A DNA stretch of 64,000 nucleotides from an uncultured Candidatus Saccharibacteria bacterium (GTDB taxonomy: Bacteria; Patescibacteriota; Minisyncoccia; Phycocordibacterales; UBA9973), in NCBI GenBank assembly GCA_964527185.1, contig CAZGOI010000001.1:167097-231096 (forward strand), written 5' to 3'. Both the position numbers and the translations under genes were made by a program. Positions 17,423 to 22,076 of the stretch are shown here, piece after piece. The notes below the pieces were generated by a model. It saw only the letters and a program-made list of their open reading frames with translations. It searched no databases and had not been told where the DNA came from. How positions within the stretch are numbered: position 1 is the stretch's first letter; each line of letters starts with the position of its first letter.

Positions 17423-18148
17423 ATGAAAACAATCAACAGCCGGAAGGCTTTAAGTTTCACGATTTTCGTGCTGTTGATCAGCACGACAGTACTATCATCA
17501 TGCCAAAAAGATGGGGTTATCAGCCACGGTAGTGGTTCTGGTAATAGCGTATCCTTTACATCCAATCCGAGTGCATCGCCTGGAAAGGTGTATGACCAGG
17601 ATTCAACTATGATTACCTGGGGAGCAGCAAACTGGACCAGTTTTTCTCTGACCTCAACCAGCGGCGAAAGCGTTACTGGTTTGAATAAACAATCATATAC
17701 AACAGGGGCCCTTACTGGCGCACCAGGTGGTTCAATTGTGACGTTTACAATTTTTGCTAATGGTACTGGTGGGCCAATTAGCCGGAGTGCTTCGGTGGTT
17801 GTTTATTCGCCCAGGATGAAGGCCCTTTGCAAGGATGGAGCAAGATGGATGACAATTTTTGATCAATCTATCAGCTCCAATGGGCTTATTACAAACGCTC
17901 CACCAGATACCAACCTGTACACCTACTACCCAGATGGATCTGGAAAGGTTTTAGGTGCAGATGGATCTATTCACACGGGCACTTGGTCATTTCTGAATAA
18001 CGACAATGTCTTCCATGCATCGCTTAACAACGATTACATGATTGACTCATTGTCAAGTGCATTTTTTAAAATGCATCAAACAGGACATGACTTAGTAGAC
18101 CCAAGCATCACATGGGTGAGAACGATTATTTCAACCGCTCCTCACTAA
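17423..18148 (+). CDS. lipoprotein, hypothetical
   Basis: Signal peptide with lipobox LSSC. Ser/Thr/Gly-rich secreted domain. Confidence 0.5.
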   Translation: MKTINSRKALSFTIFVLLISTTVLSSCQKDGVISHGSGSGNSVSFTSNPSASPGKVYDQDSTMITWGAANWTSFSLTSTSGESVTGLNKQSYTTGALTGAPGGSIVTFTIFANGTGGPISRSASVVVYSPRMKALCKDGARWMTIFDQSISSNGLITNAPPDTNLYTYYPDGSGKVLGADGSIHTGTWSFLNNDNVFHASLNNDYMIDSLSSAFFKMHQTGHDLVDPSITWVRTIISTAPH

Positions 18149-18280
18149 ATTTTTTGTGGCAATGAAAGAACTTACAATTCCCTTGGATGATCAAGGGAAT
18201 TTTTTTGTGGATAACTCTCGATACTATTTTTTACGCAATAGATGATATAATTACCCTATTATGAAGTTTTATTTAAACTC

Positions 18281-19597
18281 ATGAAAATGAAAAAATATTT
18301 TATCATAGGAATCTTAATTTTCGCACTCTCTATTTCCTATGGCCAGGTCTATGCACAAACACCTCCTAATACATCTTCTATAGCCAATGTAAAACCTACC
18401 AATGGCGTGTTGGTAGCTAGTGTAAATCTTACAAATGCAAAAATTATTTTACAAGACAAAAATACCTTCAAAATATATTTTGAAATAAGTAATGGCGCTG
18501 GCCTCCAGACCGGTGTTAAGTATGGTCTGCAACTTATTTCAAATGGTCCTGGCAGTCAGTATATTGCAGACGAAAAAGTTTACGATGAATCCTTAAACCT
18601 TGGAGAAAATAGTATTACTGTAAAAAACATTACATATACTGCCCCAGAAAATTTAAATGGTAGCTATACCCTAATGCTTTCAGTTAAAAACGCTAGTAAT
18701 TTTCCATTTGCGATAGCTTCTCTTGGCGAAGTTAAACTTTCTGCCACAGAAAAAGGTGTCTATATAGATCCTGCATCATGCTACCTATCTATTCAAAATG
18801 CCAAAGATAGTAAGCACTACACCCTAACCCAAGGTATTGATATTTCTAGCGATCAAAATCTGGCTTTAAACTGTAACGTCAAGAATGAAACTAACAATCA
18901 AGTTTCTCTAACGCCATTTTTTGAAAACAGACCTGGCGGGGCCTATGGCGATGTGGCAAGCCAAACTGGCGGGGACTATAGCACCATAAATTTTTCTCAA
19001 AATGAAAGCAAAAATATCTCAGTAATCCTATCAAAAGGTTCGGCGCCAAAGTTCTATGATACGAAATTTATGCTCACAGGTAATGTGCATAATTCAAATT
19101 CAATTTTTCTAAATTATAATTTGAAGGGGGCAAGCGCGACCATCTATAAACTCTCGCTCGATAAAGATTATTACAATTCTGGCGACCAAGCCAAAGTATC
19201 GCTGCTTTGGTTCACAACTCCGAGCGGAACCCTAGAAGTTGATGGCAAGACTATGAATACTACAACATTTGCGACTGTCGCTCTGTCTGTCAAAAGTGGC
19301 GATGAAAAATGCTCTGACGAAGTTATTAATCCTCTGACGAGAAATCTAAATAGCCCAGTGACAGAAATCGCTGTGCCGATAAAATCTTCTTGCCAAGACC
19401 CAACAGTCATAGCTATCGCCCGAGATAGCAAAGGGAATATCCTAGACCAGAAAGAATTTACTTTCAAAACAAAAAACCCTGGAAGCAAGCAAGTATTTAG
19501 CACCAACGCAATCATTGTGTTATTTATAATTCTGATCATCATTGCTTTGTTGTTTCATCCTAAAAGTCGCAAAATAAATTTACCAAAGAATAATTAA
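18281..19597 (+). CDS. secreted, cell-surface-anchored protein, hypothetical
   Basis: N-terminal signal peptide, beta-rich body, C-terminal TM anchor (AIIVLFIILIIIALLF) followed by a basic tail. Confidence 0.5.
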   Translation: MKMKKYFIIGILIFALSISYGQVYAQTPPNTSSIANVKPTNGVLVASVNLTNAKIILQDKNTFKIYFEISNGAGLQTGVKYGLQLISNGPGSQYIADEKVYDESLNLGENSITVKNITYTAPENLNGSYTLMLSVKNASNFPFAIASLGEVKLSATEKGVYIDPASCYLSIQNAKDSKHYTLTQGIDISSDQNLALNCNVKNETNNQVSLTPFFENRPGGAYGDVASQTGGDYSTINFSQNESKNISVILSKGSAPKFYDTKFMLTGNVHNSNSIFLNYNLKGASATIYKLSLDKDYYNSGDQAKVSLLWFTTPSGTLEVDGKTMNTTTFATVALSVKSGDEKCSDEVINPLTRNLNSPVTEIAVPIKSSCQDPTVIAIARDSKGNILDQKEFTFKTKNPGSKQVFSTNAIIVLFIILIIIALLFHPKSRKINLPKNN

Positions 19598-19602
19598 ATC
19601 TT

Positions 19603-20706
19603 ATGAATAAAAAACTTACAAAAATAATAAAAAACCTATCGGTAATTTCCCTCTTAGTATTTTTTGGTTTTATTTTGAAAATAAAAAATGTTTCAGCTGA
19701 TAACTATTCCTATGTTTGCGCAGATGGCGGTACAATAACTTCCACCGTATCGATATCTCCAAGTGGTCCGTTTCCACTAAATCCAAATACTTTTACCGCC
19801 TATGGCATGCTCACAGACAATTCGTGCACTGTTAACAATGTTAATCTAACCGTCCAAAATAATAGTGGTACTATCTACACCATAATTCCAACCCAACCGA
19901 TAAGTCTAAATGGACAAATTCCATTAGGTGCCCCCGCTTATCAGCAGTTAACCCCCCCAGCTTCTGCTGGCAACTATGCCGTTCACTTTGTAACTGGCGT
20001 TAATGAGAATGGAGGTGGCACGTATGGAGGTGGTTTTGCTCGTTGTTTTGTGGCCGATACTAAAGTGACAATGGCTGATGGTTCAAAGAAAAATATTCAG
20101 GATGTTAAAATTGGCGACATGTTAATGAGTAAGGGCGGAAACAATAAAGTTCTAGGCTTCCACCAGCCAAAACTTGGAAATCAAAAGCTATACTCATTCA
20201 ATAGTGGGAGATATTTCGTGACAGCCGAACACCCATTCCTGACAACTGATGGATGGAAATCTTTAGATCCAGAAAAAACAGCAAATGAGCACCTCAACAT
20301 AAATATTACGGCGCTACACGTCGGCGACATGCTTATCACAGACCATGGAAATGTGAAACTAAATTCTATAAATGGAAAATATGAGAGTAGTGATACACAA
20401 CTATATAACTTTATTCTAGATGGCGATCATACATATTATGCAGATGGTTATTTGGTTCACAACAAGGTTGGTTGCACAGCAGATGGCTCGGGTGCGCCAA
20501 ACTACCCACTGTGTCCAAGTAATATTTACTGTCTAGACAGTACACCACCCCCAACGGGTGCCCTGGCTTACCCTCCAAATTCAAGTAACGTCGGGACATG
20601 TTCTATCCCGTGCTCAGTACCAGAATCAAATCCACAAGCATATTGTACTGCTAACCCAGGTAGAACGTTCTGTTCGACAGACCTTTATATGCACAACTGC
20701 CCCTAA
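19603..20706 (+). CDS. secreted protein with bacterial intein-like (Hint) domain and Cys-rich C-terminus
   Basis: Signal peptide. Hint block A CFVADTKV, block B TAEHPF, C-terminal block YNFILDGDHTYYADGYLVHN ending His-Asn. The next residue is Lys, not a nucleophile, so it resembles a BIL A-type rather than a true intein. Followed by a Cys-rich tail. Confidence 0.65.
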   Translation: MNKKLTKIIKNLSVISLLVFFGFILKIKNVSADNYSYVCADGGTITSTVSISPSGPFPLNPNTFTAYGMLTDNSCTVNNVNLTVQNNSGTIYTIIPTQPISLNGQIPLGAPAYQQLTPPASAGNYAVHFVTGVNENGGGTYGGGFARCFVADTKVTMADGSKKNIQDVKIGDMLMSKGGNNKVLGFHQPKLGNQKLYSFNSGRYFVTAEHPFLTTDGWKSLDPEKTANEHLNINITALHVGDMLITDHGNVKLNSINGKYESSDTQLYNFILDGDHTYYADGYLVHNKVGCTADGSGAPNYPLCPSNIYCLDSTPPPTGALAYPPNSSNVGTCSIPCSVPESNPQAYCTANPGRTFCSTDLYMHNCP

Positions 20707-20736
20707 ATTATTAGTGATCTAAGCTAGAGATAAAGT

Positions 20737-22035
20737 ATGAAAAAAACAATCACGAAATATTTAATACTCTCAACTGCGACTTTGTTTGCTCTATTTGGTT
20801 TTTGGAATAAATCTTTGGCGTGGAATTATGTTCAATACGACGTAAGTTACGTTGTTAGTGCTACTCCTGTTCCAGTCGTCACGATCACTGCAAACCCGAC
20901 ATCTGGTACTGTCAATTCAGTCCATGGGATTCTGTCTTGGAGCGCGACCAACAATCCGACCTCATGCAGCGCTTCTGGCGATTGGTCTGGGGCGCAGGCG
21001 GTATCTGGCAACAATGTTGACCAAGGAGTCTTGACTCAAGTTCGCACATATACCTACACCCTAACTTGTTCAAATGCTAGTGGCACGAGTTCACCTGCTT
21101 CAGCCACTGTGGTTGTAAACTCTGCAACTAACAACCCCCCAACGTGTAATGCTGGTGCAAACCAAAGCATAACCCTACCTACTAATTCAGTCTCACTCTC
21201 TGGCTCTGGATCAGACCCAGATGGTGACCCAATAACCTATCAATGGTCTAAAACAGCCGGTCCAAGTTCATATAACATATCTTCACCGACATCAGCATCG
21301 ACTTCAGTAACTGGGTTAGTTCAAGGCACGTACACATTCCAATTTGTTACCACAGATAATCATGGAGCAAGTTGTTCACCAGTAAGCACAACTCAAGTAA
21401 CTGTAAATCCTGCCGCTAGTCCAAGTGGTTCTCTGACAGTTTCGCCAAACACTTGTACAATTTCCTCTGGGGCAAGTACTTGCAGTGTCACTGGCGCGAC
21501 GTGGACGACAAGTAACACAACATCGCCACAACTTCAGGACGGGAACACTGGTAATATACTCTCAACGCTTGCCAATAATGCGACACCACTGCAAGTTTGG
21601 GTTGCCTATCCTTCGACCACGTTTAATCTAAAAGACGGTGGCACACTACTTGATTCGAAAGTAGCAACGGCTTCGTGTACTGGCGGCACGTCTTGGAATG
21701 GAACTATTTGCGCAACAGTTGTTGTTAACGGAGTTTGTGCAGCTACCCACTGGAATTGTACCGCTGGAACAAGTATAAATAATGCAACTGGTGCAAACTC
21801 GTGGACATGGCAATGCAAAGGCTCTGGTGGTGGTTCAACTGCATCGTGTTCAGAAAATTTCCCAGTAGGCAGCCCTCAATGTAGCGATGGTATAGACAAT
21901 AATGGCGATGGGTTAATAGATTCAAACCAGCCATCTTGTCATACAGATTGCAATGCCAATAATGCTTCCTCTTACAATCCTAATCTAAACAACGAAGCCA
22001 AGAGGTGCATAAACCCGATATATAAGGAACTTTAA
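20737..22035 (+). CDS. secreted PKD-domain repeat protein
   Basis: Signal peptide. Ser/Thr-rich Ig-like repeats. PKD signature SGSGSDPDGDPITYQWSKTAGP. Cys-rich C-terminus. Confidence 0.6.
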   Translation: MKKTITKYLILSTATLFALFGFWNKSLAWNYVQYDVSYVVSATPVPVVTITANPTSGTVNSVHGILSWSATNNPTSCSASGDWSGAQAVSGNNVDQGVLTQVRTYTYTLTCSNASGTSSPASATVVVNSATNNPPTCNAGANQSITLPTNSVSLSGSGSDPDGDPITYQWSKTAGPSSYNISSPTSASTSVTGLVQGTYTFQFVTTDNHGASCSPVSTTQVTVNPAASPSGSLTVSPNTCTISSGASTCSVTGATWTTSNTTSPQLQDGNTGNILSTLANNATPLQVWVAYPSTTFNLKDGGTLLDSKVATASCTGGTSWNGTICATVVVNGVCAATHWNCTAGTSINNATGANSWTWQCKGSGGGSTASCSENFPVGSPQCSDGIDNNGDGLIDSNQPSCHTDCNANNASSYNPNLNNEAKRCINPIYKEL

Positions 22036-22043
22036 AATAAATA

Positions 22044-22076
22044 AAAAACACCCTGAAACAAGAGGGTATTTTTTAT
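22044..22076 (+). terminator. intrinsic terminator
   Basis: CACCCT-GAAACAAG-AGGGT hairpin followed by TATTTTTTATTT. Confidence 0.6.

Follow-up and report, generated by a model that had tools for sequence, protein, structure and literature searches.

Bacterial intein-like (BIL) domains of type A are recognized by a His-Asn end that is not followed by a Cys, Ser, or Thr at the +1 position (Amitai et al. 2003; PMC4031507, PMC7765530). They form a thioester and cyclize their terminal Asn, with cleavage as the dominant outcome and splicing occurring via a free amino group (PMC4031507). For another described domain, BIL2 of the Tetrahymena thermophila polyubiquitin-like locus BUBL1, the depositors report that the thioester is resolved by a lysine amine, yielding an isopeptide (PMC8616854). 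A C-type BIL is also named in PMC9185962. Here, we compare these systems with a gene for a Hint protein found in a window of 64 kb, i.e., the whole stretch of DNA analyzed.

Layout of the gene and identity of its Hint domain

The features of the Hint protein and of its neighbors are collected in Table 1. All of the motifs that the initial annotation had read from the open reading frame were present as described, namely, CFVADTKV, TAEHPF, and YYADGYLVHN followed by Lys. An identical protein is already on record, having been called on a 22-kb Logan contig.

Table 1. Features of the Hint-protein gene and the neighboring genes (positions in the window)
Feature	Position	Strand	Remarks
Putative lipoprotein, 241 aa	17423..18148	+	Lipobox LSSC; the conserved cassette starts with this gene; 2 Cys
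Terminator-like hairpin	18176..18201	+	11-bp stem and T run, 3' of the lipoprotein gene; consensus scan only
Upstream partner, 438 aa	18281..19597	+	Signal peptide, ~350-aa ectodomain, C-terminal TM anchor, basic tail
Hint-protein gene, whole CDS	19603..20706	+	ATG start, TAA stop; 367 aa; secreted (predicted)
Signal peptide, aa 1-32	19603..19698	+	Hydrophobicity and sequence inspection; cleavage inferred
N-terminal domain, aa 33-133	19699..20001	+	All-beta sandwich predicted (AF2); 2 Cys
Gly-rich linker, aa 134-147 (NENGGGTYGGGFAR)	20002..20043	+	Sequence; last residue Arg147 is -1
Hint (BIL-type) domain, aa 148-287, 140 aa	20044..20463	+	Pfam, PDB searches, AF2/Foldseek, profile comparison
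Cys148 codon TGT	20044..20046	+	Predicted block A nucleophile, start of CFVADTKV
Block B motif T207-A-E-H210-P-F, aa 207-212	20221..20238	+	T207, H210, P211, and F212 nearly invariant
His286-Asn287, CAC AAC	20458..20463	+	End of YYADGYLVHN; block G; predicted Asn cyclization site
Lys288, AAG	20464..20466	+	Clade-specific +1 residue
C-terminal 80-aa module, 8 Cys	20464..20703	+	Alignment of tails
PKD protein, 432 aa	20737..22035	+	Exported (predicted); K319L-like PKD domain, Pfam PF22352, 8e-22; Cys-rich C-terminus
Terminator-like hairpin	22050..22067	+	3' of the PKD gene; consensus scan only

The predicted signal peptide consists of MNKKLTKIIKN, LSVISLLVFFGFIL, and KIKNVSA in succession and is followed by DN. 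Its cleavage was assigned by eye; the VSA/ASA site is kept in close homologues, and 80 of the 118 Met-initiated homologues have a signal-peptide-like N-terminus. The N-terminal domain, the strands of which were modeled by AF2 with a pLDDT of approximately 65 to 79, had no match in Pfam or in a PDB sequence search and was common to only 5/120 homologues. Judged from these homologues, it is a variable "cargo" placed ahead of the Hint domain, from which it is separated by a region with a pLDDT of <50 (aa 133 to 144).

Pfam searches with the Hint protein gave partial-length matches above the cut-offs for Hom_end_hint (36 bits; cut-off, 32.1) and Vint (31.3 bits; cut-off, 27), in agreement with the Hint domain proposed by the initial annotation. 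The PF01079 (Hint) family, which it had also named, stayed below its cut-off (18.8 bits; cut-off, 29.7). A phmmer search of the PDB with the Hint protein matched BIL and intein chains. The AF2 model had a pLDDT of >90 across aa 148 to 287, and Foldseek matched it to BIL2, gp41-1, and CthBIL with E values of 2e-9 to 1e-6 and TM scores of 0.76 to 0.81. Because the Pfam searches, the PDB sequence and profile searches, and AF2/Foldseek agree, the domain is confirmed, at the level of sequence and predicted fold, as a genuine member of the HINT superfamily, well beyond chance. Two other matches were set aside. An AXH (Ataxin-1) domain call fell short of its threshold (28.6 bits; cut-off, 33) and reflects the shared Hint-core motif EHPF...GW.S..P, and the PADLOC defense models gave only a trivial 13.7-bit match between the first 36 Hint residues and a homing-endonuclease model. 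No second Hint copy was found in the 64-kb window.

A large clade with lysine after the terminal His-Asn

A profile search at E<=1e-30 gathered 1,208 representatives (50%-identity clusters) of a clade to which this Hint domain belongs and in which the terminal His-Asn is nearly always followed by Lys. Homologues of the Hint protein come from Patescibacteria MAGs. In the window itself, the genes for S5 and L15 lie without an L30 gene between them, as in CPR/Patescibacteria. The initial annotation had proposed checking the key Cys, His, and Asn among homologues, and their conservation was borne out: Cys1 was present in 308/309 clade domains and the terminal His-Asn in approximately 290 of 300, while the T-x-x-H of block B (T207, H210) was nearly invariant. 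Cys148 is the sole cysteine within the Hint domain, and 239/281 clade Hint domains likewise have no Cys besides Cys1; the flanks are Cys-rich, here with even counts (2 and 8). This pattern fits a putative free catalytic thiol amid disulfide-bonded extracellular domains.

The +1 residue was Lys in 260/289 clade domains (~90%). Ten domains had Lys at +2 only and seven had Arg at +1; among approximately 300 domains, Cys was found at +1 in two and Thr in one. The K:R ratio at +1 was 37:1, compared with ~6.6:1 over whole Hint domains. On this alignment evidence, the lysine at +1 is itself a conserved feature, beyond the mere lack of a nucleophile. Some clade members stop 1 to 2 residues past His-Asn and still keep the Lys, and others have tandem Hint domains with a lone Lys between them (HN-K-CF). 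Therefore, the clade cannot serve in general to release a C-terminal product. Its near-invariant Lys+1 is unaccounted for by simple cleavage. We also considered the Lys-poor flanks (tails, 1.7%; N-regions, 2.6%; Hint domain, 9.3%) as a sign of a special role of Lys288, but rejected this, since the exported neighbors are equally Lys-poor (PKD protein, 1.5%; lipoprotein, 2.8%).

As the initial annotation pointed out, the hallmarks of an A-type BIL are present, i.e., Cys1, the block B His, the terminal His-Asn, and no +1 Cys, Ser, or Thr; the classical A-type BILs, represented by Clostridium thermocellum BIL4 (PDB 2lwy) and the Neisseria MafB BIL, likewise end in His-Asn without such a +1 residue and are found in exported, non-housekeeping proteins. 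The fold is shared (TM, 0.77 to 2lwy), as are the motifs CF[VI]A[DG]T, T-x-x-H-P-F, and YNF..D..HTY...LVHN. Membership of the A-type BIL/PT-HINT family, however, did not hold up: PF07591 stayed under its cut-off (21.2 bits; cut-off, 27.7), covering only aa 233 to 286 (54 residues), while it was present in 120/120 of the C. thermocellum-type homologues listed. An alignment to the BIL-A domains, as had been suggested, upheld homology (hhalign of the His-Asn-Lys clade against the C. thermocellum clade: probability, 99.2%; identity, 30%) but not identity of the +1 residue, which is Lys in the former and in the latter was Ala in 50/61 domains and Lys in 0/61. In addition, the His-Asn-Lys clade has an extra loop of ~14 aa (GWKS.DP.KT..E), which 2lwy lacks, and a conserved 8-Cys module lies behind the Hint domain here, unlike the variable toxin domain of the classical clade. 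By profile comparison, the His-Asn-Lys clade is thus a large separate branch and forms the sister group of the classical A-type BIL/PT-HINT domains.

Profile comparison also places the clade nearest to the ciliate BUBL domain BIL2 (PDB 6tmm, 6y75). This was the best PDB match, with a full-length profile E of 4e-16 and a Foldseek E of 2e-9, scoring 62 bits against the His-Asn-Lys clade profile but 37.6 bits against the classical one, and it shares the WKS..P loop with the His-Asn-Lys clade. BIL2 differs in being eukaryotic and cytoplasmic, in its ubiquitin-like flanks, and in its +1 Met, and identity is ~24%. In the Hint protein, Pfam found no ubiquitin-like domain of the kind that flanks a BUBL-type BIL. 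The class 1 mini-inteins gp41-1 and DnaB share the HINT fold, Cys1, the block B His, and the His-Asn end. Unlike them, the Hint protein has no +1 Cys, Ser, or Thr and is not an insertion in a conserved host protein; its Hint domain lies between a variable domain that is exported and a module rich in Cys and, being 140 aa long, leaves no space for an intein-type homing endonuclease. Finally, the order of signal peptide, N-terminal cargo, Hint domain beginning with Cys-Phe, and C-terminal region of ~60 to 80 aa is reminiscent of Hedgehog Hog. However, the Hedgehog Hint domain has no terminal His-Asn and its C-terminal region stays attached, whereas the junction between Hint domain and tail keeps a conserved His-Asn here.

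In the literature searched, we found no paper on Hint domains in Patescibacteria/CPR, and the His-Asn-Lys clade is uncharacterized so far. It possibly overlaps with the C-type BIL, reportedly described by Dori-Bachash et al. in 2009, which is said to occur in Bdellovibrio and to be associated with a PPS-1 domain.

Eight-cysteine tail and the surrounding cassette

The tail follows the framework K-x2-C-x12-C-x5-C-x22-C-x3-C-x10-C-x8-C-x8-C, of which K1 and all eight Cys were invariant across 17 tail sequences with a mean identity of 32%. A single cluster takes 92/147 tails, and 91/147 begin with K-x-x-C. The N-regions were far more diverse, with 187 of them falling into 65 clusters, so the variable part, which the initial annotation had proposed to look for in the Cys-rich tail, lies on the N-terminal side. 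Across the window and 33 loci, the 8-Cys module was seen only directly behind a Hint domain. A tail-only AF2 model (pLDDT, 77.6) had no significant fold match in the PDB, and a search of a 5.8-billion-protein set with the tail profile returned nothing at E<=0.01, a level of significance that a profile of 65 positions cannot reach in that set.

The partner gene stops 5 nt ahead of the Hint gene, and the stretch from 18281 to 22035 is probably a three-gene unit, set off by the hairpin behind the lipoprotein gene. The run of secreted proteins noted earlier at 17423-22035 proved to be a conserved cassette of exported proteins, with synteny in the homologous loci L001 and L012 and partly in L007. 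The partner gene is syntenic with the Hint gene in all three, and L001 and L012 also carry PKD homologues downstream of the latter. The accompanying claim of Cys-rich termini in all four proteins stood for the Hint tail (8 Cys) and for the PKD protein, which has 16 Cys overall, but not for the lipoprotein (2 Cys) or the partner (4 Cys). In eight representatives, the partner is fused in frame to the Hint protein; the fusion in L012 had been considered as an assembly error, which was dropped once these eight independent fused representatives turned up. The partner had no match in Pfam, NCBIfam, or a PDB sequence search, and the lipoprotein had none in Pfam or NCBIfam. Synteny and fusion suggest that the Hint protein works with its membrane-anchored upstream partner in a conserved cell-surface cassette of this Patescibacterium.

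Predicted processing, alternatives, and meaning

We consider it fairly probable, from the sequence comparisons, that the Hint protein is an exported self-processing precursor that is mainly cleaved into three pieces and belongs to a partner-linked surface cassette. Following Sec export and loss of the signal peptide, the Hint domain would fold outside the cell, and Cys148 would attack the Arg147-Cys148 bond (N-to-S acyl shift), producing a thioester at the C-terminus of the N-domain. Cyclization of Asn287, aided by His286, would break the Asn287-Lys288 bond. This would mainly yield three pieces, namely, the N-domain, the Hint domain on its own, and a mini-protein of 8 kDa with eight cysteines that begins at Lys288, while a minor re-ligation of the N-domain to the tail via the Lys288 amine may occur, as reported for type A BIL domains.

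It is conceivable, if rather doubtful, that ligation is instead the main outcome, with Lys288 as the acyl acceptor, the Hint domain excising itself, and the N-domain joined to the 8-Cys module; the epsilon-amine, or the alpha-amine after Asn287 cyclization, would attack the Cys148 thioester to form an isopeptide or a peptide bond. The conservation of Lys at +1, or at +2 in the 10 further domains, its retention even with 1- to 2-residue tails and in the HN-K-CF tandems, and the K:R ratio all point this way. So do the K(epsilon-NH2)-C-terminal isopeptide reported for BIL2, the closest solved relative (PMC8616854), and the splicing of type A BILs via a free amine (PMC4031507). However, BIL2 has Met at +1, and hence its nucleophilic Lys must lie elsewhere; Arg, the commonest substitute at +1 (7 domains), is incapable of accepting an acyl group; and no Hint-less allele of the form N-domain-K-tail was found in what was a weak search. 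Likewise, we hold only tentatively that the clade may be a distinct splicing or ligating class, in which the amine of the +1 Lys replaces the Cys, Ser, or Thr of inteins, with an extracellular isopeptide product or transfer of the cargo to a lysine of the partner or host. Transfer of the Hedgehog type, in which an external nucleophile would resolve the Arg147 thioester and leave the N-domain covalently attached to an acceptor (for instance, an amine of the cell wall or of a lipid, the upstream partner, or a host surface molecule), with the 8-Cys module recognizing the adduct or partner, seems unlikely to us. The idea is purely analogical, and the conserved His-Asn leads one to expect that, unlike in Hedgehog, the Hint-tail bond breaks. 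What speaks for it is the combination of a Hint domain with a conserved module of ~63 to 80 aa, recalling the Hog Hint domain and sterol-recognition region in architecture only, together with the tight coupling to, and recurrent fusion with, the membrane-anchored partner, the many Hint-terminal clade members with N-terminal cargo alone, and the description of BIL2, according to which the domain upstream of it is conjugated to other proteins (PMC8616854).

The polymorphic-toxin-like character suggested by the initial annotation, by which a pretoxin PT-HINT domain would release a toxic C-terminal peptide against competitors or the host, is in our view very unlikely. The protein is predicted to be secreted, its tail is small and disulfide-rich like some toxins, and it matched PT-HINT weakly (E, 3.7e-4), as did 37/92 homologues at E<=1e-3. 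Nevertheless, the score lies under the gathering score, and the tail is a conserved module rather than a polymorphic tip, with no toxin family found in the tails of 92 clade members; the variable side is the N-terminus. Moreover, the downstream gene encodes a conserved exported PKD protein, unlike an immunity gene, and no spare tail cassettes were found in the 64-kb window. That the Hint-fold domain is catalytically dead or purely structural is highly improbable: hardly any variation is seen in Cys1, the block B His, or His-Asn over >280 domains at 30 to 75% identity, and nothing specific favors this reading beyond the below-threshold match to AXH, one of the HINT-fold domains that are noncatalytic.

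Hint and BIL domains underlie widely used protein-ligation tools and are, to our knowledge, the only ATP-free route by which a protein turns its own backbone into a thioester. The present clade fixes a lysine where inteins require Cys, Ser, or Thr and classical BILs carry Ala. If the domain merely cleaves, it adds a new but routine subfamily to an autoprocessing domain that is already known. If the Lys is the acyl acceptor, it would represent a naturally occurring splicing domain that forms isopeptides under oxidizing extracellular conditions. Lysine ligation, if true, would also mean that ultra-small epibiotic bacteria build or attach surface proteins independently of sortase and ATP, and it would point to bacteria as the source of the BUBL domains of ciliates. 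Very few surface proteins of Patescibacteria have been characterized, and the cassette of lipoprotein, partner, Hint precursor, and PKD protein, with its recurrent fusion, is a candidate system for surface assembly or host contact.

Domain layout and Hint identity

The features of the Hint protein, the 367-residue product under study, and of its neighborhood are collected in the table; the residues named in the initial annotation were described exactly, as re-reading of the ORF and codon positions confirmed. In Pfam, the protein exceeded the gathering scores of Hom_end_hint (36 bits versus 32.1) and Vint (31.3 versus 27) and fell short of those of PT-HINT (21.2 versus 27.7) and Hint PF01079 (18.8 versus 29.7). 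A phmmer search of PDB sequences matched BIL and intein chains. The AlphaFold2 model, built with 92 homologues as input, had a pLDDT of >90 over aa 148-287, and the best Foldseek match in the PDB was BIL2, the Hint domain of the Tetrahymena BUBL locus (E 2e-9, TM 0.76-0.78), followed by the gp41-1 intein and the Clostridium thermocellum BIL 2lwy (TM 0.77). All of these approaches agree with the original claim: residues 148-287 are a Hint domain.

Features of the Hint gene and its neighborhood, with counterparts in other loci
Feature	Position	Strand	Remarks
Putative lipoprotein	17423-18148	+	241 aa, no known family; first gene of the cassette
Lipoprotein counterparts	L001 3032-3757; L012 3441-4172		cassette head in three genomes
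Terminator-like hairpin	18176-18201		strong; after lipoprotein gene; consensus scan only
Upstream partner gene	18281-19597	+	438 aa; 5 nt before Hint gene
Hint protein ORF	19603-20706	+	367 aa, first ATG to TAA
Signal-peptide-like N-terminus	aa 1-32		basic n-region, 14-residue hydrophobic core, VSA then DN
N-domain	aa 33-133		predicted all-beta sandwich (AlphaFold2, pLDDT about 65-79); 2 Cys
Gly-rich linker	aa 134-147		low model confidence; last residue Arg147
Hint domain	aa 148-287		140 aa, between linker and Lys288
CFVADTKV, starting at Cys148	20044-20046 (TGT)	+	
TAEHPF	aa 207-212		
YYADGYLVHN, ending in His286-Asn287	20458-20463	+	
Lys288	codon AAG		directly after Asn287
C-terminal tail	aa 288-367		80 residues, 8 Cys
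PKD-domain exported protein	20737-22035	+	432 aa; 30 nt after Hint gene
PKD protein counterparts	L001 6699-8336; L012 6644-7696		
Terminator-like hairpin	22050-22067		after PKD gene; consensus scan only
Ribosomal protein genes S5, L15	31782-32393; 32397-32825		3 nt apart
Fused partner-Hint representatives	L012 ORF 4309-6639		P0159, P0150, P0137, P0154, P0164, P0152, P0146, P0151

A Hint clade ending in His-Asn-Lys

From a word-indexed search we obtained 170 homologues; those with a name were Patescibacteria (Paceibacterota, Nomurabacteria, and Gracilibacteria). The window itself is consistent with CPR/Patescibacteria, since no L30 gene lies between S5 and L15; the lack of L30 is a well-established feature of CPR genomes. 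Scanning GTDB genomes yielded 33 Hint loci, the majority in Patescibacteria MAGs, with further loci at 40-52% identity in Bacteroidota (Negadavirga and Olivibacter), Alphaproteobacteria, and others. When 1.84 billion cluster representatives were searched exhaustively with a profile, 1,208 proteins matched at E<=1e-30 and 4,261 at E<=1e-10. Residue statistics were drawn from 327 Hint domains in 223 proteins. The key residues, whose conservation had been in question, are well kept: Cys1 in 308/309 domains and His-Asn in about 290/300. The residue after the terminal Asn (+1) is Lys in 260/289 and Arg in 7, while 10 more have Lys only at +2. No Cys besides Cys1 occurs in 239 of 281 domains, which suits a catalytic thiol that needs to stay free among disulfide-bonded extracellular domains.

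Type A BILs, as reviews define them, end in His-Asn without a +1 nucleophile and mostly cleave, with some splicing in which the C-fragment reacts through its free amino group (PMC4031507; PMC7765530). By these functional criteria the Hint protein's domain qualifies as a type A BIL, its chemistry being predicted. The A-type assignment made initially thus holds for the His-Asn end, the lack of a +1 Cys, Ser, or Thr, and the BIL-like character, but not for strict membership in the PT-HINT/A-type family. To sample the classical clade, we used the sequence of the experimentally characterized C. thermocellum BIL, read off an alignment, and recovered its native relatives. All of these had PT-HINT among the Pfam matches listed; at +1, 50/61 had Ala, 5 had Ser, and none had Lys. 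When the profiles of the two clades were compared (probability 99.2%, E 1e-19, 30% identity over 130 columns), both had the motifs CF.A.T, T..HPF, and YNF..D..HTY...LVHN, but the His-Asn-Lys clade carried an extra loop of ~14 residues, GWKS.DP.KT..E. Taken together, the PT-HINT score below cut-off, Lys rather than Ala at +1, the profile comparison, and the extra loop indicate a sister group of the classical A-type BIL/PT-HINT clade, defined by His-Asn-Lys. We found no Pfam model covering this clade end to end, and literature searches turned up no paper on it. The clade is large and separate from PT-HINT; its novelty is qualified chiefly by a possible overlap with the C-type BILs of Bdellovibrio, the comparison having covered the classical A-type and BUBL domains.

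BIL2 (PDB 6tmm/6y75) shares the extra loop (WKS..P) and scored 62 bits against the His-Asn-Lys profile versus 37.6 bits against the classical one (alignments A2 and A4), which suggests that eukaryotic BUBL Hint domains derive from the bacterial His-Asn-Lys clade. Sub-threshold Pfam AXH (Ataxin-1/HBP1) matches were seen in 80/92 family members (aa 206-246, about 20218-20340, in the Hint protein), and the family profile matched Ataxin-1 AXH structures (E about 3e-5, profile positions 10-107), hinting that AXH may be related to the N-terminal two-thirds of the clade's Hint domain.

Two to seven tandem Hint domains occur in 73/223 family proteins, midway in giant surface-type proteins (Laminin_G, Laminin_B), often separated by just one Lys (15 cases) or by Lys followed by 2-5 small residues. 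Examples are P0121 (Mucilaginibacter angelicae, 4119 aa), P0122, P0123, P0125, and P0129, and, at 3.3-3.4 kaa, L019 and L022 (Negadavirga and Olivibacter). P0121 was the one member whose source annotation was checked; its NCBI name, 'Hint domain-containing homing endonuclease', looks like a mis-annotation. Under table 11, the Hint ORFs of L015, L024, and L026, loci that include Peribacteria and Absconditabacterales, have an in-frame TGA or a TGA end, as expected where lineages use TGA as a sense codon, and the architectures listed for these three loci are truncated.

The Cys-rich tail and the surface cassette

Variability of the tail was a point to check in the initial annotation; the alignments show that the tail does not vary freely. 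Across 17 aligned tails, Lys1 and 8/8 Cys are invariant at a mean identity of 32%, in the framework K-x2-C-x(5-12)-C-x(4-8)-C-[IL]-D...G-[ST]-C-x3-C-x(9-12)-C-x(6-11)-C-x(6-8)-C. Among the 147 tails with 40 aa or more, 91 begin with K-x-x-C, 100 have a Cys content of at least 7%, and 92 fall into one BLAST cluster; longer tails have 13 or 15 Cys. The N-terminal regions form 65 clusters among 187, and the Hint protein's N-domain is common to only 5 homologues. Searched across the window and 33 loci, the tail profile matches only directly C-terminal of Hint. The tail-only model (pLDDT 77.6) had no significant match among PDB folds. The Cys-rich tail was seen at Patescibacteria-type loci; Bacteroidota and proteobacterial members have Gly-rich sequence after Lys. 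As judged from sequence, the tail is a conserved 8-Cys module.

The flanking hairpins make the genes at 18281-22035 look like one unit, as judged from the consensus terminator scan only. L001 and L012 are syntenic with the window over all four exported-protein genes, and L007 in part, which bears out the proposed surface cassette. The partner has a signal peptide and an ectodomain of ~350 aa that belongs to no known family; at its C-terminus a transmembrane helix is followed by a basic tail. In eight cluster representatives (L012 and seven more, 776-950 aa), partner and Hint are a single polypeptide, always laid out as ectodomain, TM1, short Lys-rich loop, TM2, variable N-domain, Hint, Lys, and Cys-rich tail; both hydrophobic segments are kept, with a VSA/ASA-type site at the end of TM2. 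In the window this architecture is split over two genes, and the recurrence of the fusion is good evidence that their products act together. The C-terminal about 110 aa of the PKD protein are Cys-rich, include a weak match to the NCBIfam 'acidic double-disulfide repeat' (CSDGIDNNGDGLID...), and share 68% identity with the C-terminal end of the L001 neighbor; the cassette thus has another conserved C-terminal module that is rich in disulfides.

Predicted processing and the +1 lysine

Beyond domain identity and conservation, we infer what the Hint protein does. It has the conserved residue set, Cys148 with His210 for an N-S acyl shift and His286-Asn287 for Asn cyclization, together with a single free Cys in the Hint domain and its export signal. 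By analogy with the reactions established for inteins and type A BILs (PMC4031507), it is fairly probable that outside the cell the Arg147-Cys148 bond would become a thioester and the Asn287-Lys288 bond would be cut. N-domain, Hint domain, and an 8-Cys mini-protein would then be separate products, with possible re-ligation of N-domain and tail via an amine of Lys288.

Simple cleavage leaves the conserved Lys unexplained: Lys is kept where proteins stop one or two residues on (HNK, HNKA, and similar) and at 15 HN-K-CF junctions, where the next Hint begins right after it; the spacers in the 4,119-aa Mucilaginibacter protein, with 5 tandem Hint domains, include KGSS and KGGGS. The most interesting of the remaining readings, a variant that splices or ligates with the help of its lysine, is rather unlikely: this retention and a K:R ratio of 37:1 at +1 versus about 6.6:1 across Hint domains overall speak for it, as does the K(epsilon-NH2)-C-terminal isopeptide that BIL2 forms according to its depositors (PMC8616854), but the +1 residue of BIL2 is Met, and Lys at +1 is most often replaced by Arg. 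Hedgehog-like transfer to an external acceptor or to the partner protein is an unlikely route. A polymorphic toxin, as the initial annotation had implied, is quite improbable: no Pfam toxin family was found in the tails of 92 members, and the window has no immunity-like gene and no spare tail cassette. A second Hint copy was likewise absent from the window. A dead domain, with the catalytic residues kept across the clade, is hardly credible.

The overall picture drawn initially is thus partly supported: BIL-like chemistry is predicted for the domain, and its gene sits in a surface cassette, but the protein is not toxin-like and its tail does not appear hypervariable. What distinguishes the clade is the fixed +1 Lys and a conserved membrane partner that is fused in some cases, and in Patescibacteria the 8-Cys module would be a dedicated partner of the Hint domain.
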